The notes: a model not told the origin generated them from the letters alone. Counted from the stretch's first letter, positions 1,008 to 53,072 are shown. The stretch: 64,000 nucleotides of DNA from Minisyncoccota bacterium (GCA_965216295.1 OZ244141.1:295671-359670); one strand, 5' to 3'. Numbers and translations: made by a program.

Positions 1008-1652
1008 ATGAAAGTATTATTTCTCAACTGTACGTTGAAATACGCACCAGATATTTCTAATACAGAAGCACTCATTCTGAAAGCGAAGAAAGAGTATGAA
1101 AAATTTGATGCTGAGTGTGAAATAGTACGTATCAATGATTACAATATTAAGTTTGGCGTTTCTTCAGATGAAGGTGGTGGTGATGAATGGCCAAAAGTGC
1201 TTGAGAAGATAAAGCAGGCTGATATTCTCATTGTAGGAATGCCAATATGGTTTGGTGTGAGAAGTTCGGTAGCACAATTATTGATTGAACGACTTGATGG
1301 TACCTATGATGAGGTAGACAAGACAACAGGGCAGTTCCCACTCTACAACAAGATAGCTGGAGTTATGGTGACTGGTAACGAAGACGGGGCACATGATTGT
1401 TGCGCAACTACGCTATACAACCTTTCTCACCTCGGTTGTGTTGTTCCACCAAATTCTGACTCATACTGGGTTGGCGATGCTGGACCAGGACCAAGTTATA
1501 TTGAAGCAGGTGGTGATAAACACCTCTATACAAACAAAACAACCAAGTTTATGGTTCGAAACACACTTCATATGGCAAAAGTAATGAAGGAAATGCCATT
1601 GAAGATAAATCTTTCAGAGGTTATTGAAGAGGCAAAGAAAGAGTCACGATAA
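1008..1652 (+). CDS. NAD(P)H-dependent FMN reductase / flavodoxin-like fold protein
   Basis: 214-aa ORF with an ATG start. The ILIVGMPIWFG-type segment and overall pattern match the NADPH-dependent FMN reductase (flavodoxin-like) family. Confidence 0.55.
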   Translation: MKVLFLNCTLKYAPDISNTEALILKAKKEYEKFDAECEIVRINDYNIKFGVSSDEGGGDEWPKVLEKIKQADILIVGMPIWFGVRSSVAQLLIERLDGTYDEVDKTTGQFPLYNKIAGVMVTGNEDGAHDCCATTLYNLSHLGCVVPPNSDSYWVGDAGPGPSYIEAGGDKHLYTNKTTKFMVRNTLHMAKVMKEMPLKINLSEVIEEAKKESR

Positions 1653-1667
1653 TGATATACTTAATAT

Positions 1668-2036
1668 ATGGGTAAATATACAGCAGTCCTTCTTATTATT
1701 ACTGTCATTCTTTTGATACTTTACTTTTTTGGTAATAATGGTAATAAAAGAGATGCTCTTGCTAATACCACTCCGCCATCAGAAGTAACAAAGCTTGGTG
1801 CTTGTGCTATAACAGGATGTAATAGTCATTTGTGTGTAGAGAAAGATCAGGCTAATGATATTGTTACAACGTGTGAATTTCTCCCTGTCTATGCTTGTTA
1901 TCAAAATGTTGGTGTGTGTGAGTGGCAGATTGATGACAATGCCTGTGGTTGGACACAGACGGATGAATTGAAACAGTGTATCGTAGAGGTAGAAAAAGAA
2001 GACGCTCTTAATCGTTCTGTTTACGAGGCTATATAG
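1668..2036 (+). CDS. small N-terminally membrane-anchored cysteine-rich protein, hypothetical
   Basis: 122-aa ORF with an N-terminal hydrophobic anchor (AVLLIITVILLILYFF) followed by a soluble part with 9 Cys. No recognisable family. Its stop codon abuts tRNA-Glu. Confidence 0.45.
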   Translation: MGKYTAVLLIITVILLILYFFGNNGNKRDALANTTPPSEVTKLGACAITGCNSHLCVEKDQANDIVTTCEFLPVYACYQNVGVCEWQIDDNACGWTQTDELKQCIVEVEKEDALNRSVYEAI

Positions 2037-2107
2037 GCCCCATCGTCTAGCGGCTAGGACGTAGCCCTCTCACGGCTGAAACCGGGGTTCGATTCCCCGT
2101 GGGGTCA
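2036..2107 (+). tRNA. tRNA-Glu (anticodon CTC)
   Basis: 72-nt cloverleaf read by eye. Acceptor GGCCCCA/TGGGGTC, T-arm GGGGTTCGATTCCCC, anticodon stem TAGCC/GGCTG with loop CTCTCAC, so anticodon CUC. No encoded CCA. Confidence 0.85.
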
Positions 2108-2164
2108 CATACAGATAATTATTTACATCAATAAATTTAAGGTTGAGTTTTTTATACATAACAC

Positions 2165-2190
2165 AGCTTATATTTTTTAAAATATAAGCT
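2165..2190. promoter_or_regulatory. perfect palindrome AGCTTATATTTT-tt-AAAATATAAGCT (12-bp arms) about 15 bp upstream of the methyltransferase start; candidate operator
   Basis: The inverted repeat was read directly. It lies between tRNA-Glu and the ATG at 2205. Confidence 0.4.
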
Positions 2191-2204
2191 ATACTTAACT
2201 TAAT

Positions 2205-3296
2205 ATGAGTAACACAAGGTGGAGCAGGATACCAAAAAATATAAGAAAAAATGTTCATGGAATGTGTAGCTATCTAGCGATGTTTCCACCAAATATTCCA
2301 AACTATTTTATTAAAAAATATACAAAAGAAGGTGATGTTGTTTTAGATCCATTTTCCGGAAGAGGTACTACTATCACAGAGGCTTCCTATCTCAACAGAA
2401 AGGCAATAGGTTCAGATTTAAACCCATTAGCAATAGTTTTATCTCGTGCCAAAGTTAGTGTCCCATCAAGAAATTCTATAATTAGAAGAATAAAAAAAAT
2501 TGAAACAGATTTTAAAAAATCAAAAAAAAATAGTATCATCAATCAAGAAAAAAATATAAAGATGATTTTTAATCCTAGTACACTAAGAGAATTAGTTTTT
2601 CTTCAAGATAATTTAAATTGGAAAAAAAATAGAATTGATAATTACATAACTGCAATGATTCTAGGGATTTTACACGGCGGATCAAAAAATTATCTATCAA
2701 TTCAAATGCCTAATACTTTTTCAATGTCTCCAAACTACATCAAAAGTTATATAAAAAAAGAAGGATTGAAAAAAGAATATAGAAATGTATTTAAATGTCT
2801 TCGTAAAAAATTTGAGAATTGTTATGATAAACCAAATATTGCAGGGAATGTATTTAAACAGAATGCATTAAAGATGAATAAGGTGAAAAAAAATAGCGTA
2901 AATTTGATAATCACATCACCACCATATTTAGACGTAATTAAATACGGACAATATAATTGGATAAGGCTTTGGTTTATAAAAGAGGGTGCGAGAAAGATAG
3001 ATCAAACACTATTTACATCTCAATCTCTAAATAAGTATGTTAATTTTATGAAAGATTTTTTAAACCAATCAAAAAAAGTACTAAAAAGAAACGGAAAAAT
3101 TATACTAATAATAGGTGATGTTAGAGGTTTAAATCTTGCGAAAAAAGTTTGGGAAAATAGCGCGGAACCACTCGGTTATGTAAAAGAATATTTGTTAAAG
3201 GATGAAATTGATGAAAACACAAAAACTACAAAAATATGGAATGAAAGAAAGGGAAAAGCTACGAAAATTGATAGAGTTCTTATTTTGTCAAACTAG
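2205..3296 (+). CDS. DNA amino-methyltransferase (N4-cytosine or N6-adenine), motif I then motif IV order
   Basis: 363 aa. Motif I-like VVLDPFSGRGTTITEA lies near the N-terminus and motif IV LIITSPPYLD about 190 aa later, with a putative target-recognition region between. Very AT-rich coding sequence. The 3' end overlaps the convergent GHKL gene by 9 nt. Confidence 0.75.
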   Translation: MSNTRWSRIPKNIRKNVHGMCSYLAMFPPNIPNYFIKKYTKEGDVVLDPFSGRGTTITEASYLNRKAIGSDLNPLAIVLSRAKVSVPSRNSIIRRIKKIETDFKKSKKNSIINQEKNIKMIFNPSTLRELVFLQDNLNWKKNRIDNYITAMILGILHGGSKNYLSIQMPNTFSMSPNYIKSYIKKEGLKKEYRNVFKCLRKKFENCYDKPNIAGNVFKQNALKMNKVKKNSVNLIITSPPYLDVIKYGQYNWIRLWFIKEGARKIDQTLFTSQSLNKYVNFMKDFLNQSKKVLKRNGKIILIIGDVRGLNLAKKVWENSAEPLGYVKEYLLKDEIDENTKTTKIWNERKGKATKIDRVLILSN

Positions 3297-5522
3297 CTTA
3301 TGAAAAATTAATAATTGTAATATTGTACTACTGGCGACAGAAAGCGCCTCATTTTTAAATTCATTGATTGTAGATTCATCTGCAGATTCACCTTTGTCAC
3401 CAACAAAAAGAGAATCAAGATTTTTTGAATGTTCTAAATTAAAACAGGAGTATGCAAGAAATATAGAATAGTGACTTTTCATCTTTTCAATATTTTTTAT
3501 TTTATTCTTTTTTATAAAAGATTGATAATATTTATTAGAGAGATTTATGAAAATTATAATATTATTTTTTGTTTCTTCATATTTTGCAAAATCTTTCTCA
3601 TTGTTAAAAACCCTTTTCCATATTTCGTAAGTTTTTTTATCATCTTTTGATACAGATTTAATTTCAGGAGAACCACGTAAATTTTTTTTATTACCAGAAT
3701 TCTCCTCAATAATAAATATCACCCTCCCTTCACTTATTAAATCTTTTTTATGCGAATTTAACAAAACATGAACTTTAAAATTTTTACCTATTTTTGCAAC
3801 ATTACTTAGAGCACATCTAATTCTGCTTCTACCGCCAAAGAAATTATCTATTTGTATAGAATCTTTTTTAATATATTTTTTACTTTCGTCAATTAATTTG
3901 AGTTGATAGTATTTTGAGGTCTCATTTGATAAATCAGATTCAATATTTAAAGTTAATATTTTACCTATTTTTGCATTTATAGGAGGTTGGTTTGTTATTT
4001 TTATATATGTAGGAAAATCTTTTGTTTCAATTATTTTTTTCTTTCCACCATCACCCGATCCATTACCACCCGATCCACCATCACCTTCAGTTTTTTCATC
4101 ACCCGAAATACTTATTTGTCCAACAAGTAAATTATTTTTTAACATTTTTGCTAAAATTTCTTGCATTTTTTCAGATCCCTTTTGCATACCTTTTGCTGCT
4201 TCTTCAGAATATTTTCTACTTTGTTCATCCAACAGGATAGGGTCATCAGAGATAAACTTAACTATCTCTTCTTTAATTTTCTGCCTAGATTCATTCGTTA
4301 ATCTTTGTCTATCTGTAATAAATGTCTTTTTTTTGCTTTCATTAGAAATTTTATTGCAGTTAACTTCTATAATTAAATTTTCTTTTAATTGTGGGAGTTT
4401 TGCATTTTCTTCAATTAGGCGTCTTGAAAATTTTCCATGTACTTGTCCATTGAATGTTACTAAAATGGGATTTTTACAATCATGTAAAAAACGATTTACC
4501 TTTTGACTTTCACCATTTTTATCATCCTTTAGATAATAGTATGTCAAAACTATTTCCTCCCCATCATTAAAATATTGAGATACTGTAGTTTTATTAAGTA
4601 TTTTATTTTCTTCAACATTATTTATCAACCTTCTTTTTAAACCTTGCATGTTTTTTACATTCCATTGCTCTGGTTTATCTTTTTTGTCTCTATTAAAATA
4701 CCCTATTTTATATGCAAATGCAGGGTTGAAAAGTATTTCATCACAGACCTTATAAAACTCACGTCCAATTATATTTTTTTCAAATTCAATGTGAAAAACA
4801 AGAGTGCCAAAAAAATCCTTTTTAAATCCTTTGTTAATTTCAGAATTAAAAGTTTCCTTCATTTCATCAAAGGGAATTGTTATTGGTAAATCGTCTTCAG
4901 ATGAAACTAGGTATTCATATTTTCCCTGTTTTGCAAACTCATCATCATCTAAGGAATTAAATCGTATAATTGTAAATGAAAGATTTGTATCTTTAACTGA
5001 ACAAATTATCGTATATTTATTACCACCGCAAACCGTCGATCCACCTTGACCAAAAGACCCCATTGTATATTTTTTTCTAAATTTATTAGAGGCATTTAAA
5101 GATAATATAGTATTTGTCATTTCTTCATTTGTTAAACCCACACCATTGTCCCAAAACAAAAAATTAGTAAATTTTTTTGTTTTATGTATTTCCACAAAAA
5201 TGTCATCTTTATGTATTTCTTCATTTTTTTCTTTTAAAAAATTAATAACATCATAAGGGCTATTAAAATTTTCAAATTCTTTATATTTTTTTGCAAATTT
5301 TTCTATATATGCATCAATTGAATTTGTTATACGTTCTAGAAGTAAACCCACATCAGCATCAGCTGAATGTACTGTTGAATAGTTTGCCTCTCTGTCACCC
5401 AAATCTCTCCATTTCAGTTTATCGTCATCATTCAAAGATGACACTATTTGATCAACTTCAACAGTTTCTATATTTCTTTTTTGCAAAAAGGATTTTATAA
5501 TTTTTCTGATGTCATTTCTCAT
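3288..5522 (-). CDS. MORC/Hsp90-like GHKL ATPase with Gly-rich linker and uncharacterised roughly 250-aa C-terminal domain
   Basis: 744 aa. Bergerat-fold motifs are present: N-box ERITNSIDAY, G1 box WDNGVGLTNEEM, G2 box MGSFGQGGSTVCG. A GDGGSGGNGSGDGGKKK linker precedes a C-terminal region with no recognisable motifs. The start ATG overlaps the stop of the upstream 75-aa ORF (ATGA). Confidence 0.7.
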   Translation of the reverse strand: MRNDIRKIIKSFLQKRNIETVEVDQIVSSLNDDDKLKWRDLGDREANYSTVHSADADVGLLLERITNSIDAYIEKFAKKYKEFENFNSPYDVINFLKEKNEEIHKDDIFVEIHKTKKFTNFLFWDNGVGLTNEEMTNTILSLNASNKFRKKYTMGSFGQGGSTVCGGNKYTIICSVKDTNLSFTIIRFNSLDDDEFAKQGKYEYLVSSEDDLPITIPFDEMKETFNSEINKGFKKDFFGTLVFHIEFEKNIIGREFYKVCDEILFNPAFAYKIGYFNRDKKDKPEQWNVKNMQGLKRRLINNVEENKILNKTTVSQYFNDGEEIVLTYYYLKDDKNGESQKVNRFLHDCKNPILVTFNGQVHGKFSRRLIEENAKLPQLKENLIIEVNCNKISNESKKKTFITDRQRLTNESRQKIKEEIVKFISDDPILLDEQSRKYSEEAAKGMQKGSEKMQEILAKMLKNNLLVGQISISGDEKTEGDGGSGGNGSGDGGKKKIIETKDFPTYIKITNQPPINAKIGKILTLNIESDLSNETSKYYQLKLIDESKKYIKKDSIQIDNFFGGRSRIRCALSNVAKIGKNFKVHVLLNSHKKDLISEGRVIFIIEENSGNKKNLRGSPEIKSVSKDDKKTYEIWKRVFNNEKDFAKYEETKNNIIIFINLSNKYYQSFIKKNKIKNIEKMKSHYSIFLAYSCFNLEHSKNLDSLFVGDKGESADESTINEFKNEALSVASSTILQLLIFHKLV

Positions 5523-5746
5523 AATCTAAACTTTTTATTTCTTTTATAATGAAACTTACTTTTTATATTTTTTACCTCTATTTCTATTTCTTTAAATATT
5601 TTTTGAATTTCCGCTTCATTATATTCATATGCACTTCTGTTAGCGCAATTTCCAAGTATTTTTAGAGACTTAAGAACCATGTTAGTTCTATAGTTAGCTA
5701 ATCTTCTAAATCTATCCCTTTTTTCCTTTGGTTTATTATTTATCAT
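5519..5746 (-). CDS. small basic protein, hypothetical; translationally coupled to the GHKL ATPase
   Basis: 75-aa ORF, Lys/Arg-rich, ATG start. Its stop overlaps the GHKL start codon, and an AT-rich putative promoter region (TATATATAT) lies upstream. Confidence 0.45.
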   Translation of the reverse strand: MINNKPKEKRDRFRRLANYRTNMVLKSLKILGNCANRSAYEYNEAEIQKIFKEIEIEVKNIKSKFHYKRNKKFRL

Positions 5747-5876
5747 AAATACGTAGTGTATTTATATATATATCATATCCTTATGTTATTTGTCAATTAT
5801 AAGGTGTCTTAGTGTTTAATAAAGAAAATTTGTGATTGTAAATATGGAGAAAAGGTATCAAAAAATAAACAAAACT

Positions 5877-6686
5877 CTATTCCTCCAAAATATAGTAGGT
5901 GATAGAAGAATATGAGGTTATCTTATTCTCACCAACACTAATAGGCACATCAGCTACATCTAACGACGAGGATTCTAAACTAACAGATTTGGCACCGTAT
6001 TGTGAAGAGTTTCGATATGGAGAAGCACCACCACCACCTATATTCACACTCATTACCTTACCGAGACGTATACCCGTCTCTTTTGATACCTTTTTCGCTC
6101 TCTCCTTTGCATTTTTCACTGAAAGGACAAGAGCATCATCTTGCAATTCTCGCTGTTTTTCAGGATCAACCAAGAACTGAAGATTACTCACATTTTCAAC
6201 ACCTTTGTCGGAGATAGCAGAGAGGATACCTGCAGCAGCATCTAAATCTCGTATCGTTATCGCAGTAGTATGAGTTACTTCATATCCTTTAAATACTCGT
6301 TTGCGAGTACCTTTTTTAGCAAGTATTTCATACTCATACTTTGGATGTATAGAATAGGTGATTGTTTTAACATCTTCGTCATCAATCTTAGCCTTTTTAT
6401 CCAAATAATTATATATATCAGACACCTTCTCAGAAACCGCAACTCTTGCTTGAGAAACATCATCATTCAATTCTCGAACAGTGAAACTCAACTGTGCTAT
6501 GTCTGGGATAGCGAGTACTTCTCCGTATCCAGTAAAGGTGAGCGTATCTCTCTCATTCAAATTAGCAACTCTATTTTCTCTGTATGTGTAGGATAAGACA
6601 GCAATAGAAATAACGACAAGTAAAACCGTAGCAGAAAGCATGAGTGCTATGAGAGCTTTGGTTTTTTTATCCATATCTGCGAACAT
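5877..6686 (-). CDS. SIMPL-domain (DUF541, YggE-like) periplasmic/membrane-anchored protein
   Basis: 269 aa with an N-terminal TM anchor. The C-terminal region shows the SIMPL-like pattern (ALVLSVKNAKERAKKVSKETGIRLGKVMSVN). Confidence 0.6.
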   Translation of the reverse strand: MFADMDKKTKALIALMLSATVLLVVISIAVLSYTYRENRVANLNERDTLTFTGYGEVLAIPDIAQLSFTVRELNDDVSQARVAVSEKVSDIYNYLDKKAKIDDEDVKTITYSIHPKYEYEILAKKGTRKRVFKGYEVTHTTAITIRDLDAAAGILSAISDKGVENVSNLQFLVDPEKQRELQDDALVLSVKNAKERAKKVSKETGIRLGKVMSVNIGGGGASPYRNSSQYGAKSVSLESSSLDVADVPISVGENKITSYSSITYYILEE

Positions 6687-6700
6687 CAGTATCAGTATAC

Positions 6701-7705
6701 CTATAATGTTTCAGAAGCGTCAACTGATGGAACACTCTCTAAAACAACACCATCATCTTTGTGACTTGTAATAAATGAAAACCACAATTCATAGTAACCA
6801 GGAATGTGCTTCGTGCCATTGTAAGCATTAATAACATCTCCATCTCGTTTCACCGTAACGCTGAGATTATCGTGTGAAAAGATTCTCTCTCCAGGGATGA
6901 TCTGAGAGTATTGAATAGCCGCAAACTGCTCACCAATTGGAATGATGTAGAACAATTCTTTTGCAAAAAATCGTTTATCGGTATGACTCACCGGAAAGAG
7001 TATCCTTTCATCTTGTTCATAGTCTCCGTATGGATAGACGCTGTAGTTTCTTAAGTGCCCAGTCTCTCTACTAACAACAGAGGTATTTGGGAATTTTGTT
7101 TTCACTTCACCAAAAGAGAGTAGTTGCAATGGCAGTAGTGTGAGTTTGGTTCCAGTATATTTTCCAATCACTGCTTCACCCCGTGATTGAGACCACAGTG
7201 ATTCTGTTTTTTTATCATACATGAGTAAGTTTGATTCCAAGAGGAGTCCACTCACACCAAATTCAAAAACCGCATCATCAATGCGCCTGTCGTACACTAT
7301 CCCAGAAGAGCAGAGTGGGCAAAAGGTAACGGCAATTGGTATACCCCCAACGATATCATTAATTATTTCATGCCATACCAAGATAGAGTAGGGATAAAAG
7401 ACACTCTCTCCATTGAGAGAAACATATATTCCTCTGCCATTGTCTTTCTCCTGAGCATCTTCCAGTGAAACACGCTTCGGACTGTAGAGCGCTGGTATGC
7501 CGTCTTTTGAGACTCCACCTGATAAAACGGTATCTATAGCAACAGAGGAGATACTGGTATCTGTCTTTAAACTGTATTTCTGAAAGGCATGAGCGCTAGA
7601 TTCCTCTTGTTTGTCATCATATAAGATTTGTTTTGTCTCGTACGAGGAGAACAGAGTGTAGCCGATAGGGATACTGACAAGAAAAACGAGTATATACCAT
7701 TTCAT
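6701..7705 (-). CDS. secreted/membrane-anchored hypothetical protein (DUF3179-like, TFCPLC motif)
   Basis: 334 aa with an N-terminal hydrophobic segment and a conserved-looking TFCPLCSSG motif. The family call is tentative. Confidence 0.45.
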   Translation of the reverse strand: MKWYILVFLVSIPIGYTLFSSYETKQILYDDKQEESSAHAFQKYSLKTDTSISSVAIDTVLSGGVSKDGIPALYSPKRVSLEDAQEKDNGRGIYVSLNGESVFYPYSILVWHEIINDIVGGIPIAVTFCPLCSSGIVYDRRIDDAVFEFGVSGLLLESNLLMYDKKTESLWSQSRGEAVIGKYTGTKLTLLPLQLLSFGEVKTKFPNTSVVSRETGHLRNYSVYPYGDYEQDERILFPVSHTDKRFFAKELFYIIPIGEQFAAIQYSQIIPGERIFSHDNLSVTVKRDGDVINAYNGTKHIPGYYELWFSFITSHKDDGVVLESVPSVDASETL

Positions 7706-7720
7706 AGTAATCAGTATATG

Positions 7721-8647
7721 CTATCGGTAGTTTAAAAGAGAGAGGAGTGCCATTCGGACGTAGAGGCCATTTTCTGCTTGTTTGAAATACCACGCTCGTT
7801 TGTTATCATCCACATCTACATCAAGTTCATCAACTCGTGGCAAAGGGTGCAATATGATAGCCTCATCTTTCATTGTTTCAGCAAGATCATTATTGAGGAT
7901 AAATCGACCCTTCATCCTTGTATATTCTTCTTCATTAGTGAATCGTTCTTTTTGTATTCTTGTCATGTAGCACACATCAGTGTCTTTGAGAGAGTTTCGT
8001 AGGTCATCTGTCTCTGTGTACGATACATTGTTTTCTTCTAAGAACTCCCGCATACCATCTGCTATTTTTGAATTTTCTGTTGAGACGAAGGTAAACGTAT
8101 TATTAAAACGAGAGAGGAGGTAGAGAAGAGAGTTCACCGTTCTACTCCGCAACAAATCACCAACGATAGTTATCGAAAGCCCTTCTAACCGTCCAAATTT
8201 CTCGTAAATGGTGTACATATCAAGAAGTGTCTGTGTCGGGTGTTGTGCCATACCTGAACCAGCATTGATGATGGGTATTTCTGCAACCCGAATTGCCTTA
8301 TCAGAAGAAGTGTCTTCGGTGTGTCGTATGATAACGGCATCAACATAGTTGTTCAACATCCGTATCGTATCCTCAATTGTTTCATTCTTATACGCAGAAG
8401 AAAAAATTGATGCGTTTTCTGTCCCTATCGTTTTTCCTCCCAATTTAAGAATTGCACTTTCAAATGAAAACTTTGTTCGTGTTGAGGGTTCATAAAAAAG
8501 AATGGCAAATATTTTGCCATTCAAACAGTCAGATTCTTTTTTTTCTTTAAACCGTTTCGTTTTATCAATCAGTGTATCTATATACTCTCGTGTAAATTGT
8601 TTTGTATGTATAATGTGATTTTTTGGACTCAGTGTTTTATAGTTCAT
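7721..8647 (-). CDS. pyrB: aspartate carbamoyltransferase catalytic subunit
   Basis: 308 aa. Carries the STRTKFSFE (STRTR-type) carbamoyl-phosphate motif, HPTQTLLD, and the C-terminal HPLPRVDEL that is typical of ATCase rather than OTCase. Confidence 0.8.
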   Translation of the reverse strand: MNYKTLSPKNHIIHTKQFTREYIDTLIDKTKRFKEKKESDCLNGKIFAILFYEPSTRTKFSFESAILKLGGKTIGTENASIFSSAYKNETIEDTIRMLNNYVDAVIIRHTEDTSSDKAIRVAEIPIINAGSGMAQHPTQTLLDMYTIYEKFGRLEGLSITIVGDLLRSRTVNSLLYLLSRFNNTFTFVSTENSKIADGMREFLEENNVSYTETDDLRNSLKDTDVCYMTRIQKERFTNEEEYTRMKGRFILNNDLAETMKDEAIILHPLPRVDELDVDVDDNKRAWYFKQAENGLYVRMALLSLLNYR

Positions 8648-8724
8648 ACACTGGAGAGGATTGTACCATCAAGAATTTGCTGAAAAAGAAAAAACAGTTC
8701 TCGTGTGGGGATAACACATGACGA

Positions 8725-9024
8725 TTACTGCCTAAATCGGTCATAGTATTCTTTATCAGTGACAAGACCGCCATAGGGAAGTCGACATTCTCCTGATTGT
8801 CCTCCTTGTGCATCTTCAACAATGTTGTAAATACCATTATTCTCATCAACACACCAAACAGCAGCAGGCGCTGCACGTTGCACTGAACCACCATTTTCAG
8901 TTTGATTATCTATCGCAAAATGATCTGCGACAAGCACTACGATGCCGATGACAAAGACAACAACGGCAACTGCTATTATGCTATAGCGCATGGACATAAC
9001 AACTTTACTGTACCGTACCCCCAC
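8725..9024 (-). CDS. small membrane-anchored hypothetical protein
   Basis: 99-aa ORF with a hydrophobic stretch IIAVAVVVFVIGIVVLV. It lies intergenic between pyrB and trxB. The start is uncertain. Confidence 0.3.
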   Translation of the reverse strand: MGVRYSKVVMSMRYSIIAVAVVVFVIGIVVLVADHFAIDNQTENGGSVQRAAPAAVWCVDENNGIYNIVEDAQGGQSGECRLPYGGLVTDKEYYDRFRQ

Positions 9025-9041
9025 AGAGAAAGCAAGAGAAG

Positions 9042-9989
9042 TTACGCACCTCCATGTAATTGCAAATAGGCATGTTCTAACGCTTTCACTGCATCACCAG
9101 CTGCTATATTATTTTGATGAAAGATACCATCGGTACAATCTCCAGCAGCCCAAATACGGGCATGACTTGATTGTTGTGTTTTCGGATCAACAACAACACG
9201 TTGTATACCATCAAGTGTCACGAGATCTTTGAGAAGGGAAGTTTCAGGAATCAACCCTATCTCAACAAATACCCCTTGTACAGAAATTGTTTCTTCTTTA
9301 CCACTCTCTTTGTTGACATAGGTAAGCCCAGAGAGAAGTGTTTTACCAAGTATCTCTTTCGTGTCTACATTACCCAATGCTTTCATGCGCGGATGGGCAC
9401 ATACCTTTTCAACCGTAATAGCATCTGCTTTAAAGGCTGTGTGACGGTGGAGAAGGGTAACACTCTTTGCATATGCCAATAGCTGTGCTGCTGTTTCAAA
9501 TCCAGCGTTACCACCACCGATAACCGCGACATCTTTATCAGCAAATAGTGGTCCATCACACGAGGCGCAGTAGGTAAGTCCTTTATGTTCAAATGTATCA
9601 GCTCCGGGAACATTCAATTTCCGACGAGTCGATCCAGTGGCAAGGAAAATACCTTTTGCAGTAACCTGTGAACCATCTTTCAGGGTGATTGTTAACGTAT
9701 CACCGTTATCAACAATGGCAGTTGCTTTTTGTTTCTGTATTACGAATCGAGCACTTTCGTATGCACGAAGATGTTCTTGAAATGATTTTGCAAGATCACT
9801 ACCACTAATACTCTTTGTCCCTATCCAGTTTTCAATAGCAGGGGAGACAATACTTTGACCACCAAACTCTTCTACAATACAGACGGTATTGAGTTGTTTT
9901 CGTGCCGCGTAAATACCCGCCGCAGTCCCCGCTGGACCGCCACCGATAATCGCAATATCAACTATTTCCATAGGTTTGAAATGTTCCAC
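9042..9989 (-). CDS. trxB: thioredoxin-disulfide reductase
   Basis: 315 aa. FAD motif IIGGGPAGTAA, redox-active CASCDG (CxxC), and NAD(P)H motif VIGGGNAG. Confidence 0.85.
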   Translation of the reverse strand: MEHFKPMEIVDIAIIGGGPAGTAAGIYAARKQLNTVCIVEEFGGQSIVSPAIENWIGTKSISGSDLAKSFQEHLRAYESARFVIQKQKATAIVDNGDTLTITLKDGSQVTAKGIFLATGSTRRKLNVPGADTFEHKGLTYCASCDGPLFADKDVAVIGGGNAGFETAAQLLAYAKSVTLLHRHTAFKADAITVEKVCAHPRMKALGNVDTKEILGKTLLSGLTYVNKESGKEETISVQGVFVEIGLIPETSLLKDLVTLDGIQRVVVDPKTQQSSHARIWAAGDCTDGIFHQNNIAAGDAVKALEHAYLQLHGGA

Positions 9990-11155
9990 TCACTACGATG
10001 ACCGCGAGGCTTTACCTTAACATTTTCATCATGATCGTCATCATCATCAAATGATATATCTTCTTCTGTTTGATTTGGTGTGAACGTATCATCAATGAGT
10101 TCAACATCATCACTTTGGTTTGGCTGTTTTTTCTTGAATGCAGTTGGTATAAGAGAATTTGCCCCGTCTTTGTTTTTTTGAATAACATCAACGTCAGGAA
10201 ATGAAGTGGCAATAACGGTAACACGTATCTCACCTTGACGAAGATTCTTGTCCGTTGATGTTCCAAAGATAATACGAGCATTTGGATCAACAGATTCAGT
10301 AACACCTTGAGCGATAGTTTGGACCTCATCCATACTAATATCACGACGACTTCGTGATGCGATAGAGAAGAGAATGCGTTGCGCACCGCGGATAGAAATA
10401 TCAAGAAGTGGTGAGGAAGTTGCCCTTTGAACAGCGACTTCTGCACGACTTGCTCCTTTTGCCAATCCAATACCCATAAGAGCTGTACCGGAATTCTGCA
10501 TAATAGTTCGCACATCTGCAAAGTCAACGTTAATATCACCTGGATTGGTAATTAAGTCGGTAATCCCACGAACAGCTTTTAAGAGTACATCATCACTCAT
10601 AGCAAAGGCATCTGCCATACTAGTCTTCTTCTCAGATGCTTTCAAAATGTTGTCGTTTGGAATGACAATAATAGCATCACAGTTCTGAGAAAGTTCCGCA
10701 ATTCCTTCTTCGGCAAGTGCTACTCGTTTACCTCCCTCAAAACTAAATGGGCGAGTGATAACAGCAATCGTCAAGACACCGAGTTCTTTTGCTATCTTTG
10801 CAACGATAGGGCCAGCACCAGTACCAGTTCCACCACCCATACCACAGGCAACAAACACAAGATCTGCCCCTTTAATCATTTCAAGAATTTCATCAGACGC
10901 TTCTTCGGCAGCAGTGCGACCAATATTTGCGTTCATTCCTGTTCCGAGTCCTCGAGTGAGTTTGCTTCCGAGGTGTATTTTTTTACCTGCCTTCGATTGT
11001 TCAAGATCTTGAGAATCTGTATTTGCAACAATAAATTCAACACCAGCAATTCCCGACCGTATCATATGATTGGTTGCATTTTTACCAGAACCACCAATAC
11101 CAAACACTCGAATACGTGCAAATGTTTCCTCCTCAGGAAGCCTGATTTTTTTCAT
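9962..11155 (-). CDS. ftsZ: cell division GTPase FtsZ
   Basis: Tubulin signature GMGGGTGTGAGPIVAKIAK. The ORF track starts at a GTG at 11164; ATG (MKKIRL) at 11155 is preferred. Lies downstream of ftsA. Confidence 0.9.
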   Translation of the reverse strand: MKKIRLPEEETFARIRVFGIGGSGKNATNHMIRSGIAGVEFIVANTDSQDLEQSKAGKKIHLGSKLTRGLGTGMNANIGRTAAEEASDEILEMIKGADLVFVACGMGGGTGTGAGPIVAKIAKELGVLTIAVITRPFSFEGGKRVALAEEGIAELSQNCDAIIVIPNDNILKASEKKTSMADAFAMSDDVLLKAVRGITDLITNPGDINVDFADVRTIMQNSGTALMGIGLAKGASRAEVAVQRATSSPLLDISIRGAQRILFSIASRSRRDISMDEVQTIAQGVTESVDPNARIIFGTSTDKNLRQGEIRVTVIATSFPDVDVIQKNKDGANSLIPTAFKKKQPNQSDDVELIDDTFTPNQTEEDISFDDDDDHDENVKVKPRGHRSEWNISNLWK

Positions 11156-11242
11156 ATACACCACTATACCCCATATACCATAATTGTAAAATCGTTCTCA
11201 ATGGAAAAAAAGACACACAAAAATGTGATTTTTAATCACCGA

Positions 11243-12424
11243 TTAACTCACCTCATCGCTCACACGCGAGAGAAACTTCATAAATCGTTGAAAAAAACCA
11301 TCATCTTTCACTACTTTATGTTTTTTATGTGACCCTCCTGCGTCACACATCAGAGCATAACTAGTATTCCATATTGTTGGTGGCGTTGTCGTGTCAGTAA
11401 CAACACGAATATCTTTTTTTATTTTCGTATAGAGACCAACAGTATCAGAGAGTAGCTCAGGAAACTCTGGAAAGAGGCTTCCACCACCAATCAGAGTAAT
11501 GCCACCAGGGAATAGTTTATGAGTATCAATATCTTTCACATATGAAGCGATTTCTCGTGCGATGGAGAGGCGGTAAGTACTGAGCGCTTTTTGCAACGCA
11601 ATCTTGGGAAGTGGAGATTCTTTGTTGATATATTCTCGTTTCAATCGCTCTGCTTCTTGAACATTCACTCGCAGGGCAAGCGCAATGGCATTAGTGATTG
11701 ATGAACCACCAGCAGAGAGTGATCGTGCTCCAATTAAAACACCTCGTCTCCATATTGCTATGTTCGTAACATCAGCTCCGATGTCAACCACAACAGCCCC
11801 TATCTCACAATCCTCTTCAGAGATGAGCGTTTTGGTTGTTAAGGGAGATGGGATAATGGCATGTTCAACAACCAACGGTTCAAGGATTTTTTGGATAGCT
11901 TGAAGAGTTGCATTGGGATAGAGGAGACACCCATACTCTATTTCAATAGAACGTCGTGCTAAAGAGTCTTGGTAGGTGTGAGTTACATCGACACCGTCAA
12001 TGAGGATACTGATTGGTTCAATGGTGACAAAGAAATACTTTGGATAATCTTTCTGCAACTGTTCTTGTATTCTACTAACAAGTTGTTCCATGTAGTTTTC
12101 TCCAAAGACCATTGGTCGTTTGAGGTGGTGCTTCTTTTTTTTCCTGATAAACTGAGTGGCTGGATGACTTATCGACGCATAGATGGAATCAATCGGGGTA
12201 CCAATTTTTCCTTGCGTTACTTGGAGTGCGTGTTCAATTGCTTTTTTCAAAAAAGCTGGTTTTCGAATGGTACTTGCATGCATTCCTTTCGAAGTAACAA
12301 TCGTTCCTTCAAATGTCTCTCGTGCAGATGGTGTGTTTGGTGTGTCAGGTACTTGGTTGACGAGTACTTTGATAAAACCATTACCAATATCAAGTATTGC
12401 TGTTCCATGTTTTACCTTTCCCAT
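11243..12424 (-). CDS. ftsA: cell division protein FtsA (actin-like ATPase)
   Basis: 393 aa with actin-fold phosphate motifs (VVDIGADVTNIAIW, LIGGGS), sitting immediately upstream of ftsZ. Confidence 0.75.
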   Translation of the reverse strand: MGKVKHGTAILDIGNGFIKVLVNQVPDTPNTPSARETFEGTIVTSKGMHASTIRKPAFLKKAIEHALQVTQGKIGTPIDSIYASISHPATQFIRKKKKHHLKRPMVFGENYMEQLVSRIQEQLQKDYPKYFFVTIEPISILIDGVDVTHTYQDSLARRSIEIEYGCLLYPNATLQAIQKILEPLVVEHAIIPSPLTTKTLISEEDCEIGAVVVDIGADVTNIAIWRRGVLIGARSLSAGGSSITNAIALALRVNVQEAERLKREYINKESPLPKIALQKALSTYRLSIAREIASYVKDIDTHKLFPGGITLIGGGSLFPEFPELLSDTVGLYTKIKKDIRVVTDTTTPPTIWNTSYALMCDAGGSHKKHKVVKDDGFFQRFMKFLSRVSDEVS

Positions 12425-12429
12425 ACACG

Positions 12430-12846
12430 TTATAACAAACGAGCGGCATAGTGAGATTCTAGTTTTTCCATCTTCTCTCCATGCTTATAGCCTCGTATAT
12501 GGAGAATACCATGGATGATTAAAAACCCCACGTACCATTTGAGTGACACACCTTGTGTGTGTGCTTCTTTTTTTGCAAGAGGCAGGTTGATAAAAATTTC
12601 CCCAAGAGTACTTTTCTGTGCATTTTTTCCGACAGCCAGTTCATCAAAGGAGAATGTGAGTATGTTTGTTGGTGTGTCTTTCTTCCTATACACTCGGTTG
12701 AGTGTGCGTGAATAGACATCACCGATAAAAATAATGTGGAGAGAGGTTTTGTGTGTGAGCAATGTTGTGCCAAGAGCACGATACGGTACTCGCGGAGTTG
12801 GTTGTTTTGTTGTATTAAACAGCGTAACTGAATTGACCTGTGTCAC
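12430..12846 (-). CDS. ybeY: rRNA maturation endoribonuclease YbeY
   Basis: 138 aa with the HGILHIRGYKH (HxxxHxxGxxH) zinc motif of the UPF0054/YbeY family. Confidence 0.8.
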   Translation of the reverse strand: MTQVNSVTLFNTTKQPTPRVPYRALGTTLLTHKTSLHIIFIGDVYSRTLNRVYRKKDTPTNILTFSFDELAVGKNAQKSTLGEIFINLPLAKKEAHTQGVSLKWYVGFLIIHGILHIRGYKHGEKMEKLESHYAARLL

Positions 12847-49334: not shown

Positions 49335-49742
49335 ATGAAACAAAAGGTACGGAAAAGTAAGTATGACGTACGGATTGGTCGCTCTGCGAGTGGGCAGGGT
49401 CTATTTACAAAAGCACCTATTCGAAAAGGGGACTTTGTGATTGAATACCATGGACCTATTATTTCACGTGAACGGGCAGATGCGATGGGAGGGCGGTATC
49501 TCTTTGAAGTGAGTGAACGGAAGGTTATCAATGGTTCGGTGAGGTACAACCTAGCACGCTATATCAATCATTCCTGTCGTCCAAACTGTGAGACTGATGT
49601 GGTGCGTGGGAAGGTGTATATCTATGCGAGACGCAATATTCGTATGGATGAGGAGTTACACTACGATTACGGTAAAGAGTACTTTGAAGAGTTTATTGAG
49701 CCTGCTGGGTGTCAGTGTGAGAAGTGTGCGGGTCGTCGGTAA
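49335..49742 (+). CDS. SET-domain protein (putative protein lysine methyltransferase)
   Basis: 135 aa with RYINHSCRPNCE (the NHSCxPN motif), DEELHYDYG (the ELxxDY motif), and a Cys-rich post-SET CQCEKCAG. Starts 3 nt after the smc stop. Confidence 0.75.
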   Translation: MKQKVRKSKYDVRIGRSASGQGLFTKAPIRKGDFVIEYHGPIISRERADAMGGRYLFEVSERKVINGSVRYNLARYINHSCRPNCETDVVRGKVYIYARRNIRMDEELHYDYGKEYFEEFIEPAGCQCEKCAGRR

Positions 49743-51132
49743 GGAGGTCTGTTTTATAAATTTCTTTTTGTGTTACATATTCTTTGAAAACTTTAAAAAA
49801 ACTTTTTGCCATCTGTTCGTAATAATTTTTGTCATATAAATTTTCATATTCATATTCTTTAGGAAAAGATTCACAGTATTCTCTAGACAAGACATCTTCT
49901 TGTTTTTTTAGTACAGAATCGTTTGATTGATTTTTTTGAAGTTGAAAGGTTTCATGCAACATGTAAGCACCGATATTTTCTAAATTGTGTATAGCATAAA
50001 AATTTTTATGACAAAGCACTGTTTTTTCTATTAAATATTTTTCTGCTGAATCAATAGCAGCAAGGAATTTTTCTTTATCATTATTAAAGATATGCAATAA
50101 AATTTCCATCATGAGATCAATGTTTGTTTTATTTGTTGCTTCTTGTGTGTTATGTTGCAAGACGTTAAGACTGAATGAAGGAAATTTTTGAAGTGTAAAA
50201 AGGTTTCTTAGATTTATTACTTTCATAGGAATAGCAGATTTTACAAAAAGAGCAATTATAAATTGAACTTCGTCATTCAATGGCTGTGGCGTTTGATTCA
50301 TTATTTCGGTATTACAATGTCCTAATACTATCTCTTGAAGTTTATTTAATACTTCTTTTTCTATATTGTATTGATATGGTTCTTTGGAGAAAAATTTATT
50401 TATATATCCATTAAAATCAGTTTCATTTCCATATATATGATGATAGACTTTTTCAAGATTATTAAAATCACCAACGAATATCACTCTATCAAAACCAAAT
50501 TTATTCTTTTCATCATCTTGCAAAGGAGAAAAGGCATTTAGTATTTTAAACGCATGTTTTGGTTCAAGGCGATCTAAATCATCTAATATCAAAATGTTTT
50601 CTTTAGCAAGATCCATTTTATCTTCTCTACCATCTTTTACTTCTTTCAATGCTTCAGAGATGAAATTTTCCAAACAACTATTATGTATTTTTTTTACAGT
50701 ACTTTGGACTTCTGAGTTTTCTCCATTTAAAAGTTTTTTAATGGTTTCAATAGTTTGTGATTTAATACCAACCAAAGATCCAAAACATTTTATTATAAGA
50801 TCTTTTGCATTTTTTAATTTTATTTTTCCATTTTCATCTTTTAAGAATTTATTAATGATAGGCTCGTGTTGCTCTGCTAGTTGTACAAATAAATCAGCTG
50901 CTATAACTTCTAGTATATCAACATCATTGTGTACTTGATATTTAACTGGGTATAAATGAAATGTATTATATTTTTCAGAATTAGCTCTAAAAAATTCATT
51001 TAAAAAGTATGTTTTTCCCATACCAAACGATGCACTAAAGAATATTCTTTTATTACTTTTTAATTCAATAAAAGTATTAAATCCCTCATTTTTAGTTTCT
51101 GTAGATATTATTGTTTTATCCATGTGTAGCAT
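49693..51132 (-). CDS. KAP-like P-loop NTPase, hypothetical
   Basis: 479 aa with Walker A FFSASFGMGKTYFL and Walker B ILILDDLDRL (the hhhhDDLDR type typical of KAP NTPases). The C-terminal 16 codons run through the left direct repeat into the antisense strand of the SET 3' end. Confidence 0.5.
   Translation of the reverse strand: MLHMDKTIISTETKNEGFNTFIELKSNKRIFFSASFGMGKTYFLNEFFRANSEKYNTFHLYPVKYQVHNDVDILEVIAADLFVQLAEQHEPIINKFLKDENGKIKLKNAKDLIIKCFGSLVGIKSQTIETIKKLLNGENSEVQSTVKKIHNSCLENFISEALKEVKDGREDKMDLAKENILILDDLDRLEPKHAFKILNAFSPLQDDEKNKFGFDRVIFVGDFNNLEKVYHHIYGNETDFNGYINKFFSKEPYQYNIEKEVLNKLQEIVLGHCNTEIMNQTPQPLNDEVQFIIALFVKSAIPMKVINLRNLFTLQKFPSFSLNVLQHNTQEATNKTNIDLMMEILLHIFNNDKEKFLAAIDSAEKYLIEKTVLCHKNFYAIHNLENIGAYMLHETFQLQKNQSNDSVLKKQEDVLSREYCESFPKEYEYENLYDKNYYEQMAKSFFKVFKEYVTQKEIYKTDLLTDDPHTSHTDTQQAQ
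49725..49741. repeat. direct repeat copy 1 (TGTGCGGGTCGTCGGTA) at the 3' end of the SET gene; att-like
   Basis: The identical 17-mer recurs at 52986..53002. Flanking similarity extends to about 22 bp with 2 mismatches. Confidence 0.85.
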
Positions 51133-51230
51133 TCTAACATATTAATGAAAAAATAAAATTATCATGAAGAAGGATAAAACTAAGGTTTTAAAACGTTACA
51201 AACAAATAGTTTGTAAAAATTTACTTAAGA

Positions 51231-52010
51231 TTGTATAATAAAAAGATGAACAAAAATAAAACTTTATTTTTCTCCAATCAATGGTTGAATTTTTCTAAAT
51301 TTATTTATGATGTTTTCTCAAAAACACTATTAATTGCGGCATTTATTACACTTATATATTTTCTATTTAAAGGATATTGGATAGAAGTCGGATTATTATT
51401 ATTATTTTCAATATTGATAGCACCAATTATTGAATTTCTGTTAGAAGAAATATTTCGTGTTACATTTTTTACTAAGAAAGAAAGGGTTCTTATGACTAAT
51501 TTTTCTAAGGATAATAACCTAAATGTTGATTCTGTAATGAGTCTTTATGCATCAGGAGCAAAAGACGACATGAAAACATTTTCTGAAAAAACTCAATTAT
51601 TTAAAATGCTATCTCCAGAAAAAAAAGGACTTTCGGCAGTGTTTGGTATTGCGCCTACGATGCTTATTAGTTTATTTGCATATGCAGGATTACTTAGTTA
51701 TTTTTCTACAGGGAATATATATAGTGGAATAGACATCAATTATTTAAACTACGCTTCAATATTGATATTATATCTTGCAGTCGATGTTAGAATTTTACTT
51801 GTTGAAATATATTTTTCCCGACAGCTTAGTGTAACTCCATATGAACAATTTATATTGCCTTTTAAAATAATTACAATACTGCTTTTATGTCTTTTTTTAT
51901 TTTTAAACATTAACTTATCTTATACATTAATATTCAGTGTCGGATTACCATTAATTTTTATATTTTCTATAATAATGTTTTATGGTATTGCGAAAAAGAA
52001 AGATTTGTAA
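51231..52010 (+). CDS. polytopic membrane protein, hypothetical
   Basis: 259 aa with several hydrophobic helices. AT-rich, inside the repeat-bounded segment. Confidence 0.45.
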   Translation: MYNKKMNKNKTLFFSNQWLNFSKFIYDVFSKTLLIAAFITLIYFLFKGYWIEVGLLLLFSILIAPIIEFLLEEIFRVTFFTKKERVLMTNFSKDNNLNVDSVMSLYASGAKDDMKTFSEKTQLFKMLSPEKKGLSAVFGIAPTMLISLFAYAGLLSYFSTGNIYSGIDINYLNYASILILYLAVDVRILLVEIYFSRQLSVTPYEQFILPFKIITILLLCLFLFLNINLSYTLIFSVGLPLIFIFSIIMFYGIAKKKDL

Positions 52011-52309
52011 GTAAGGGTGGAAAATTTATCAAGTGACGCACGGAAAACGAGAAAATCGTTTTTTAAAGTTTTATTCTGTATCTTTGTTGTTAAGTATTAT
52101 ATATTATTTTATATTTTTAACTACGAAGTAGTAGGGAAGAGCATCAAAGAAATTTTTTACTGTTTTTATTTTTGAAAGAGAATGAGGATATAGGTAGAAA
52201 ATCTTTACTAAACATAGTCAACATCGTATCACCTTTTTAATAATCAGTAAAAGGGTAATGAAAACAAATATTAAATCTGATACTAAAATAAGAAATGACA
52301 ATAATATTA

Positions 52310-52954
52310 TTATTTTTTATTTAAATATAAATCTCTTAAATATATGCCACCTATTTCAACAAATTCATTAGCAAAATCATACATTCCATTTTCATATGCG
52401 TAATTTTTCAGTAACACAATAACCTCACTATTACTTTGTATGAATTCTTTCATTGTTTTGAAAGAGCATTCCTGTATATCATATTTACTATCAAAATGTT
52501 GCCCTTCAAATTGTTTAAATAAGAAATCTTTTTCTTTCAATATCATTTTTTTAAGACCACTATTTTCTAATTTAGTTAACCCCAATTCTGTAAGAGCGGA
52601 AGGGGATTGTGATTTAACATTTATTGGAAACTTATCTTCTAAAACTCCTTGTGCTTTTATAATGCTACATCGTGAATCTTCAGGCAAAATACCGACATTT
52701 TTATTAGTTAATGCCTTACATATTAGTTTCAATGGGGAACTCAAATTTTCTCCCAATGATTGAAGATCTTTAGGTGTATCAAGTAATTTTTTAATTTTTT
52801 TCCCAACACCCGAAAAAAGACCTAAAACAATCCCCAAGGCAATTATCGTGGTAGATATGGTAGAAACAATATTAAGAATTTCTATCCAATTCATATTCAT
52901 AAGTATTATAACAAAATTAATAATATTTTGCAAAATCACTACTATTTCTATCAT
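52310..52954 (-). CDS. membrane-anchored hypothetical protein
   Basis: 214 aa. One or two N-terminal TM helices, then a soluble domain with no recognisable motifs. Confidence 0.4.
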   Translation of the reverse strand: MIEIVVILQNIINFVIILMNMNWIEILNIVSTISTTIIALGIVLGLFSGVGKKIKKLLDTPKDLQSLGENLSSPLKLICKALTNKNVGILPEDSRCSIIKAQGVLEDKFPINVKSQSPSALTELGLTKLENSGLKKMILKEKDFLFKQFEGQHFDSKYDIQECSFKTMKEFIQSNSEVIVLLKNYAYENGMYDFANEFVEIGGIYLRDLYLNKK

Positions 52955-52985
52955 ATCTGCAATATATCAATCAAAATACTATAAT

Positions 52986-53002
52986 TGTGCGGGTCGTCGG
53001 TA
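52986..53002. repeat. direct repeat copy 2 (TGTGCGGGTCGTCGGTA)
   Basis: Identical to 49725..49741. In-frame it reads C-A-G-R-R-stop, as does the SET gene end. Confidence 0.85.
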
Positions 53003-53072
53003 GGGATGAAAGTAAAAAATTATTAAAATCCACAAAAAGAAAAATAGAGAAGGAAATAGAAAACGCACAGCA

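Follow-up and report, generated by a model that had tools for sequence, protein, structure and literature searches.

The AT-rich island bordering a tRNA-Glu gene in this genome is best read, at a probability of roughly 0.55, as a mobile, self-contained defence cassette resembling a restriction-modification (R-M) system, in which methylation would key an ATP-gated DNA clamp whose effector may be non-nucleolytic. Table 1 lists the features concerned; the window is the whole 64-kb stretch of DNA that was analysed. The island carries an amino-methyltransferase (MTase), a MORC-like GHKL ATPase and a small basic protein (here S) coupled to the ATPase, and all three genes lie where a sequence-only reading of this DNA had placed them. 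The two large genes are convergent, and their 3' ends overlap by 9 nt (3288-3296). An R-M-like defence role had also been proposed in that reading; it remains the best account of the gene linkage, mobility and defence-island neighbours described below, and was foreseen by comparative genomics (PMC2292703).

Table 1. Features of the island and its borders, in window coordinates.
Feature	Position	Strand	Basis or remark
tRNA-Glu (anticodon CTC)	2036..2108	+	ARAGORN; 3' end is the island's left border
AT-rich cassette	2109..5876	.	GC 0.265; between tRNA-Glu and the 3' end of the SIMPL/DUF541 gene
DNA amino-methyltransferase (MTase), 363 aa	2205..3296	+	PF01555 6.6e-22; PADLOC MTase_II PDLC03325 1.8e-43
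MORC/MutL-like GHKL ATPase, 744 aa	3288..5522	-	PF13589 HATPase_c_3 6e-7
ATPase C-terminal domain, residues 496-744	3291..4037	-	Ig-like beta-sandwich (~505-605), small alpha/beta unit, helical bundle
ATPase long helix (410-462) and disordered Gly-rich linker (465-495, GDEKTEGDGGSGGNGSGDGG)	4038..4295	-	helix H428-462; pLDDT <50 for 465-495
ATPase S5-fold transducer domain, ~residues 251-405	4308..4772	-	family-invariant residues
ATPase Bergerat-fold ATP-binding domain, ~residues 57-250	4773..5354	-	motifs I, II, lid; secondary structure
S, basic, predicted two-helix protein, 75 aa	5519..5746	-	ATGA overlap (4 nt) with ATPase start
SIMPL/DUF541 gene	5877-6686	-	3' end borders the cassette

GC content falls directly after the 3' end of the tRNA gene. 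Across 2109-5876 it is 0.265, against a mean of 0.408 (sd 0.010) in 231 equally long windows elsewhere (z = -14.4), and A/T runs of at least seven occur at 4.5 per kb within the island compared with 1.2 per kb elsewhere, which bears out the earlier description of a compositionally deviant segment abutting a tRNA. Neither an integrase nor an att-like repeat of the tRNA 3' end is present in the island, and tRNA-targeted integration by those means was ruled out on that ground. Homologous cassettes in other hosts are likewise AT-rich (~0.29-0.31 GC, against 0.34-0.41 for the hosts themselves) and occupy different contexts; one copy, L001, is flanked by tRNA genes, and others lie beside integrases or recombinases. 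Judged from sequence, the island is a horizontally acquired, mobile cassette.

The methyltransferase has motif I (DPFSGRGTT, residues 48-56) ahead of motif IV (SPPY, 238-241), with an insert of ~180 aa between them. This is the alpha-type arrangement, which is permuted with respect to the Pfam model, and the PF01555 match accordingly falls in two permuted stretches. Both signatures of N6/N4 DNA amino-methyltransferases, F-x-G-x-G in motif I and (S/D/N)-P-P-(Y/F) in motif IV, are present, and D48, P49, F50, G52, G54 and T55 together with T237, S238, P239, P240 and Y241 are invariant in the family alignment A3. Among solved structures the nearest relatives are N4-cytosine MTases, CcrM, PvuII and RsrI, all reached by way of motif I alone. 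By family assignment the protein is a DNA amino-methylase; SPPY suggests cytosine N4 as its target, adenine N6 being also possible, and the insert is a putative target-recognition domain.

The ATPase displays the complete GHKL signature. Motif I is E63-x3-N67-x2-D70 (ERITNSIDA, E63..D70), motif II is D125-x-G127-x-G129 (DNGVGL, from D125), and the lid comprises K147/K150 followed by G155-x2-G158-Q-G-G161 (GSFGQGGS, from G155). These ATP-binding residues are invariant in alignment A1 and nearly so in the 42-sequence alignment A5. Motifs I-III and the fold place the protein in the GHKL (Bergerat-fold) superfamily, and the S5-fold transducer that follows, with its conserved basic residue, places it in the GHL subgroup of MutL, MORC, topoisomerase ATPases and Hsp90. 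Family-invariant residues of the S5 domain are G294, R298/L299, T356, G359-Q360 and R405, the last a candidate to reach the ATP gamma-phosphate. No sequence-level match was found in the PDB; the model of the N-terminal half is a GHKL+S5 module whose nearest folds are MORC3, SMCHD1 and MutL. The protein is nevertheless distinct from each of these. In place of the S5 motif G-h-x-h-h-p-x-x-R-h-l of MORC sensu stricto it has G294-L-K-R-R298-L (by eye, A1), Pfam Morc6_S5 is not matched, and the CW, coiled-coil-insert and hinge domains of eukaryotic MORC3/MORC2 and SMCHD1 are absent. It also lacks the MutL C-terminal fold, and the family is sporadic and island-borne; this distribution, the gene context and the C-terminal fold exclude a housekeeping MutL or Hsp90, an identity that would have told against a defence role.

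The C-terminal region of the ATPase deserves particular attention, since the sequence-only reading had taken it as the candidate for the effector or restriction function. Structure prediction and a fold search of residues ~490-744 returned no nuclease fold, the helical part having been compared with PDB folds; the domain is instead Ig-like and helical, and family alignments of the C-terminus contain no conserved set of acidic or histidine residues able to form an endonuclease site. The proposal does not survive these results. The notion that restriction is carried out by the ATPase, by means of a novel nuclease in this region, draws on MutL and paraMORC3/Shedu, where nucleases lie C-terminal to the GHKL module (PMC2292703, PMC12137116), and on the lack of any other nuclease in the cassette; given the fold and its conservation pattern we regard it as very improbable. 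More probably the domain serves in dimerisation or in contact with a partner or DNA. Across all three proteins no nuclease domain was detected with Pfam, NCBIfam, PADLOC, a PDB sequence search or the fold search, and the cassette differs in this from classical type II R-M systems, which combine an MTase with an endonuclease of recognisable nuclease fold.

The third gene, S, has no match in Pfam, NCBIfam, PADLOC or the PDB, and its assignment as a recognisable HTH, RHH or other known family was rejected for this reason. It is highly conserved, with 1694 homologs, many at 55-79% identity, and it stands upstream of at least four MORC-like GHKL families, sometimes without any methylase. Some of the S-linked GHKL proteins bear sigma-70 region 4 and DnaA-type HTH DNA-binding domains. 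Its place in the gene order makes S a conserved leader of MORC-like GHKL ATPase genes. Its position and coupling recall the controller (C) proteins of R-M systems, yet it has no HTH family or PDB match, and aligned upstream regions hold no conserved operator-like repeat, only a TTGACA-like hexamer common to the window and locus L092. In DPANN archaea the place of S is taken by a ~325-aa protein, for which no homology with S was found.

The ATPase family is large: at E<1e-30 it counts 715 cluster representatives, scattered patchily among bacteria and archaea. PADLOC lacks a model for the family, and no homologs were found in phage genomes, an observation that is neutral for a defence role. The order S, ATPase, convergent MTase recurs in L001, L002 and L092, with different housekeeping genes on either side. 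Of 86 species-level loci, 67 contain the cognate MTase and 63 have it next to the ATPase, and among ATPases scoring at least 400 bits it is adjacent in 45 of 53, most of the remainder being truncated or disrupted. Whether the trio is conserved had been left as a question, and the answer is that it recurs together in different genomic contexts, with an MTase near-obligate among close homologs. As a unit it is nevertheless divisible, for S and the ATPase also occur without a methylase and S also precedes other GHKL families.

This divisibility is what one would expect of two independent neighbours, namely an autonomous S+ATPase pair, acting for example in abortive infection or DNA sensing, and an uncoupled orphan or hitch-hiking methylase. 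Consistent with such independence, an adjacent MTase is missing from S+ATPase in 5-6 of 12 evaluable CPR-type loci, which means that the ATPase cannot in every case be lethal to host DNA that is unmethylated. Moreover, in L002 and L001 the S and MTase genes are nearly identical while the ATPase between them stands at 33% and 49% identity, respectively; the ATPase gene has evidently been swapped or has diverged. Against independence, the cognate MTase subfamily adjoins the ATPase in many phyla, whichever of the two orientations the genes have, usually with stop and start codons that overlap and even where S is absent. Since linkage of this kind in both bacteria and archaea would be difficult to account for without a function, we consider independent modules a doubtful explanation.

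Further neighbours point towards a conflict system. The cassettes of L003-L005 lie beside Vsr/NgoPII/Dcm, GmrSD and HEPN genes, L003 being a defence island. A distant clade of the ATPase family adjoins another kind of DNA-modification machinery, the Ssp phosphorothioation genes, in four independent loci, which would be expected of a modification-reading or restriction partner. Identity of that clade with SspFGH was rejected: the only features given for SspF and SspH are a Walker A motif and similarity to FtsK-like translocases, and neither GHKL nor HATPase appears in the text of the SspFGH paper. In 20 loci the family is accompanied by a ~290-aa protein (invariant D89, E104, E106, Q119) and a second MORC-like GHKL protein, and in at least three loci by a YhcG/DUF1016 PDDEXK nuclease. 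The nucleases of related cassettes are, by gene content, separate additions. Neither the 290-aa nuclease-like protein nor the 508-aa MORC was found elsewhere in the 64-kb window by tblastn.

These observations bear on a role in host epigenetics or chromatin, by which the ATPase would compact or silence DNA according to its methylation state or would aid the methylase in loading or processivity. The proximity of its fold to MORC3 and SMCHD1, the lack of a nuclease and the sigma-70 region 4 and DnaA-type HTH domains of some S-linked GHKL proteins are all compatible with it. However, the patchy, island-like and AT-rich occurrence, the defence island at L003, the integrase and recombinase neighbours and the repeated addition of nucleases indicate a conflict system rather than host physiology, and we judge this role unlikely. 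A further reading is a selfish addiction module, in which loss of the cassette would kill post-segregationally through stable ATPase once methylation is diluted, with no primary role in defence. Many type II R-M addiction modules are compact, mobile and convergent, as this cassette is, and a leader gene could hold back production of the ATPase when the cassette enters a new host. The S+ATPase pairs found with no MTase speak against obligate toxicity, and the cassette has no identifiable toxic activity; we judge an addiction module highly unlikely.

The preferred reading, an R-M-like defence cassette, has precedents among systems that use GHKL ATPases or methylation marks. From gene neighbourhoods, Iyer et al. 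(2008) predicted that MORC and paraMORC GHKL ATPases function in R-M systems, and that the methylase-linked GHKL/MORC ATPases were the evolutionary source of eukaryotic MORCs (PMC2292703). The window ATPase probably belongs to their paraMORC1 family, whose domain architecture it matches. In the 20 Bacteroidota-type loci with a paraMORC1-type neighbourhood, including Leeuwenhoekiella blandensis, the operon consists of S, a 751-aa ATPase, the MTase, the ~290-aa protein and a 508-aa MORC-like GHKL protein, which fits the 'MORC + methylase + paraMORC1' type described by Iyer et al.; L. blandensis is named in the Figure 1 legend of that paper (PMC2292703). Compared with paraMORC1 neighbourhoods, the window form is minimal, with three genes, a convergent MTase and no MORC, helicase or nuclease. 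The main text of PMC2292703 makes no mention of a conserved 75-aa leader protein. Since then paraMORC3 (VcSduA, Shedu type I-D) has been validated as an anti-phage protein with a GHKL ATPase, whose ATPase activity is required (PMC12137116); VcSduA, however, carries a DUF4263 PD-(D/E)xK nuclease at its C-terminus and lacks a methylase, whereas the C-terminus of the window ATPase is Ig-like and a methylase accompanies it. BREX is likewise keyed by a methylase and is not known to cleave DNA; in it an MTase marks self and an ATPase-containing complex stops unmethylated phage without a classical restriction nuclease (PMC11341690). The window cassette lacks PglZ, BrxC, BrxL and PglX, PADLOC models for BREX do not match it, and assignment to a known defence system was set aside because the only PADLOC match is that of the MTase. 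Mza and Hma, as represented in PADLOC, are candidate defence loci that pair a MutL-like ATPase with a DNA methylase. A literature search found no experimental work on paraMORC1 or on bacterial MORC with a methylase.

Within an R-M-like cassette, the MTase would methylate host DNA at a short motif recognised by its ~180-aa insert. By analogy with MutL and MORC, the ATPase, built of GHKL and S5 domains, a flexible linker and the C-terminal domain, would dimerise through the latter, and ATP binding would close the N-terminal halves into an ATP-gated clamp on DNA. In the same analogy, the clamp may sense or act on DNA that lacks the cassette's methyl mark. S, made from the same mRNA just ahead of the ATPase, could serve MORC-like ATPases as a dedicated cofactor or regulator. 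The ATPase itself encodes no killing step. Since the window cassette has no nuclease gene, it may keep unmethylated DNA from being replicated or expressed while leaving it uncut, in the manner of BREX or MORC, or it may borrow a host nuclease. A more speculative version, which we put forward tentatively, is that S licenses or loads a MORC-like clamp that entraps or compacts unmethylated DNA topologically and so silences it; such a clamp would be a bacterial forerunner of MORC/SMCHD1 silencing, and S would be a hitherto unrecognised, universal partner of several MORC-like GHKL families.

That S leads operons belonging to at least four families of MORC-like ATPases suggests that these families share a cofactor or regulator, which could help explain how MORC-like ATPases are controlled. 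With three genes in 3.8 kb and neither nuclease nor helicase, the cassette is the smallest version found here, and it would offer a clean system for studying the recognition of a methylation mark by a MORC-like ATPase and its treatment of DNA that does not carry the mark. If the effector proves to be non-nucleolytic, bacterial immunity would be tied mechanistically to MORC silencing in eukaryotes.

Directly downstream of tRNA-Glu(CTC) lies a well-delimited, horizontally acquired cassette of exactly three credible genes. Within window positions 2109-5876 the GC content is 0.265, against 0.408 ± 0.010 in equally long windows elsewhere (z = -14.4), and A/T runs of seven or more are about four times as dense as elsewhere. 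The sequence-only reading had described the drop in composition, its deviation from the surroundings and the homopolymer runs, and all three are borne out; the protein motifs that it quoted are present as well. The small gene is coupled to the ATPase gene, as had been proposed, by an ATGA overlap of stop and start. Neither an integrase in the island nor a duplicated tRNA 3' end was found. A second AT-rich island in the window, beside tRNA-Gly(CCC), looks like another tRNA-adjacent acquisition and is possibly defence-related.

Coordinates of features in the window and in homologous loci of other genomes or metagenome contigs (L handles)
Sequence	Feature	Position	Strand
Window	tRNA-Glu(CTC), left border of island	end at 2108	
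Window	Methyltransferase (MTase), 363 aa	2205-3296	+
Window	GHKL ATPase, 744 aa, convergent with MTase	3288-5522	-
Window	Small protein, 75 aa	5519-5746	-
Window	3' end of SIMPL/DUF541 gene, right border of island		
Window	Second AT-rich island, GC 0.262	49743-54026	
Window	Second island: KAP-family P-loop NTPase, 479 aa (PF07693, 6.9e-7)	49693-51132	-
Window	Second island: multi-pass membrane protein, 259 aa		
Window	Second island: protein without assignment, 214 aa		
Window	Second island: DUF805 membrane protein	53444-53986	-
Window	tRNA-Gly(CCC), abutting second island	54027-54100	-
L001	Compared region	8001-10205	
L002	Compared region	8001-10190	
L008	Ssp-linked locus, metagenomic contig	1584-12070	
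L012	~325-aa leader-slot protein, overlapping ATPase start	5985-6962	
L013	~325-aa leader-slot protein, overlapping ATPase start	6025-7017	
L066	Accessory gene pair	10427-12829	
L100	Operon with small leader gene	5001-10213	
L104	329-aa kinase	7664-8653	

In Pfam the MTase hits PF01555 (6.6e-22) through two permuted stretches, and in PADLOC it hits MTase_II at 1.8e-43. About 180 residues separate motif I (DPFSGRGTT) from the later motif IV (SPPY); this is the alpha-type order, and the central insert is probably the target reader. The nearest solved relatives are N4-cytosine MTases, with motif I as the only matched part; together with SPPY they hint at m4C as the product.

The ATPase matches PF13589 (HATPase_c_3) in Pfam and has no PADLOC family, NCBIfam family or sequence-level PDB relative; it does not belong to a housekeeping family. 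While a word-indexed search returned only 12 relatives, an exhaustive profile search returned 1820 cluster representatives (715 at E<1e-30), those listed being mostly of 740-820 aa, and none of ten relatives looked up carried an informative name. When species genomes were scanned, 144 of them, bacterial as well as archaeal and from many phyla, proved to carry the family, cultured strains among them. Every close relative keeps the identical trio, each time in another chromosomal setting: between the CCA-adding enzyme gene and nusA, with tRNA-Pro and tRNA-Gly flanking (L001), between udg and ftsH (L002), beside Vsr/NgoPII/Dcm, GmrSD and HEPN genes (L003-L005), or in a different setting again (L092). 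In L002 the cassette is once more an AT-rich island (0.29-0.31 GC against flanks of about 0.40). A cognate MTase is present at 67 of 86 non-redundant loci and adjacent at 63, being downstream on the same strand in 44, convergent as in the window in 10 and upstream in 9. For ATPases scoring at least 400 bits, adjacency rises to 45/53, the exceptions being mostly truncated or disrupted. None of the three outcomes that the sequence-only reading had named as refuting it holds: membership of a housekeeping family, genes not kept together as a trio, or unremarkable composition.

The small protein has no match in Pfam, NCBIfam, PADLOC or PDB, and a profile search nevertheless found 1694 homologs, many 55-79% identical to the window copy; the few with a source name are from CPR lineages and Hydrogenedentes. 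Their partner ATPases are only 22-50% identical. The small gene always comes first, from a 3 nt overlap to about 25 nt ahead of the larger gene. Across gene contexts and 80 loci from scanned metagenomes, its 3' partner was a paraMORC1-like ATPase (20 loci), a ~674-aa GHKL family (13), a MORC-HTH family combining PF13589, Morc6_S5, sigma-70 region 4 and a DnaA-type HTH (8), other HATPase_c_3 proteins (3), a ~205-aa family without known assignment (20), or, in four loci, an N6_N4 MTase family (2) and two singleton 148-aa ORFs, one an HTH protein. By eye, the N-terminus of the ~205-aa family resembles a winged helix. Where the downstream sequence exceeded 3.5 kb, the small gene led to the ~674-aa GHKL in 9 loci, the ~205-aa protein in 8, a paraMORC1-like ATPase with convergent MTase in 7, that ATPase alone in 5, MORC-HTH in 4 and nothing recognised in 2. 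In the metagenome loci L096-L187, at least four GHKL/MORC-like ATPase families are preceded by the small protein, and the counts and architectures identify it as a dedicated leader or partner of MORC-like GHKL ATPases generally, not of the methylase. As far as we found in the literature, such a conserved partner is undescribed. In two DPANN archaeal loci (L012, L013) the leader slot is filled by an unrelated ~325-aa protein, 30% identical between the copies and without a Pfam match. The L100 operon, comprising a small leader, 665-aa and 197-aa proteins, a DUF2130 protein and an OLD-family nuclease (AAA_15/21 plus TOPRIM), is a candidate further defence system.

Since the small protein-ATPase pair can exist without a methylase, it might be an autonomous module with the methylase merely a frequent neighbour. 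This main rival is unlikely, though worth keeping in view, given how broad and tight the ATPase-MTase linkage is. In MTase-less pairs on Yanofskybacteria-type contigs (L104-L107), a convergent 329-aa fructosamine-kinase/APH-type kinase with a weak PADLOC mad6 match follows the ATPase, and some copies have serine recombinases or a D12-class methylase upstream.

Comparing the window cassette with those on two contigs of one sample, L001 and L002 respectively, the small protein is 76% and 74% identical and the MTase 69% and 68%, whereas the ATPase is 49% and 33% identical. The ATPase gene is therefore either replaced or much faster evolving between conserved neighbours; exchange of alleles, or diversifying selection, would seem to have acted on it alone.

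The sequence-only reading had favoured the ATPase C-terminal region as the seat of the effector or restriction function. An AlphaFold model of the full-length protein (pLDDT 76.8) begins with a GHKL domain, which is followed by an S5-type transducer and by a long helix that spans residues 410-462; a Gly-rich linker, disordered over 465-495, then leads to the C-terminal domain. This make-up has neither a nuclease fold nor a catalytic constellation. That proposal accordingly finds no support, and a cryptic nuclease there is very improbable. The overall layout of ATPase, linker and C-terminal domain is shared with MutL, whose C-terminal domain is a constitutive dimer interface; by analogy, that of the window ATPase may be one too.

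Nucleases do appear as separate genes in other loci. In 20 loci, mostly Bacteroidota (L066 and 19 others), two further genes lie 3' of the MTase. One encodes a ~290-aa protein with invariant D89, E104, E106 and Q119, tentatively a divergent nuclease of PD-(D/E)xK-like pattern, since neither Pfam nor PDB returned a match; the other is a second, ~508-aa GHKL protein (PF13589 at 7e-18, weak MzaB match). At least three other loci carry a YhcG/DUF1016 PDDEXK nuclease (PADLOC PDC-S02) there. None of these accessory genes occurs in the 64-kb window, so effector nucleases look like exchangeable add-ons and the window like the bare core.

A distant clade of the ATPase family (~805-828 aa) adjoins Ssp phosphorothioation genes (SspC, SspD, DUF4007/SspB and cysteine desulfurase) in four independent loci: L008 and plasmids of Devosia, Ensifer and Hymenobacter (NZ_CP104964.1, NZ_CP101520.1 and NZ_CP110137.1; L093-L095). 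The Hymenobacter plasmid has DUF262 and SIR2 genes between the GHKL and PAPS-reductase genes. Identity of the clade with SspFGH, the known Ssp restriction partners, was rejected: the SspFGH paper characterises these by no more than a Walker A motif and likeness to FtsK, and nowhere mentions GHKL. The clade could be a restriction partner of Ssp systems that has so far gone undescribed. That the family pairs with two unrelated DNA-modification machineries is as expected if it reads modification state or acts on it.

What the genes are, their folds, the conserved motifs, the linkage and the mobility are established; around them, the best-supported reading is an R-M-like defence system (probability about 0.55). 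The MTase would mark self DNA, and the MutL/MORC-like ATPase, dimerized through its C-terminal domain, would clamp unmarked DNA in an ATP-gated manner, with the small protein as cofactor or regulator. The terminal step might be non-nucleolytic, with DNA blocked or compacted in the manner of BREX or MORC, or it might draw on an outside nuclease. A role in chromatin or epigenetics is rather unlikely, and an addiction module more doubtful still.

Iyer, Abhiman and Aravind 2008 (PMC2292703) describe prokaryotic MORCs and five 'paraMORC' families, predicted from gene neighbourhoods to act in R-M systems, so the cassette class, like the link cited by the sequence-only reading, was foreseen by comparative genomics and is not categorically new. 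In their account, paraMORC1 neighbourhoods hold MORC and DNA methylases without helicases, and Leeuwenhoekiella blandensis is in the Figure 1 species list; its five-gene operon (L066) fits this description exactly, so by the published description the window ATPase is probably paraMORC1. Our literature search turned up no experimental work on this family, and PADLOC has no model for the cassette class. The related paraMORC3, validated as a Shedu-type defence protein (PMC12137116), carries its own nuclease, whereas the window ATPase has no nuclease fold. Because the window shows the class in a minimal form, it makes the way in which such systems work with no nuclease of their own a more pointed question.
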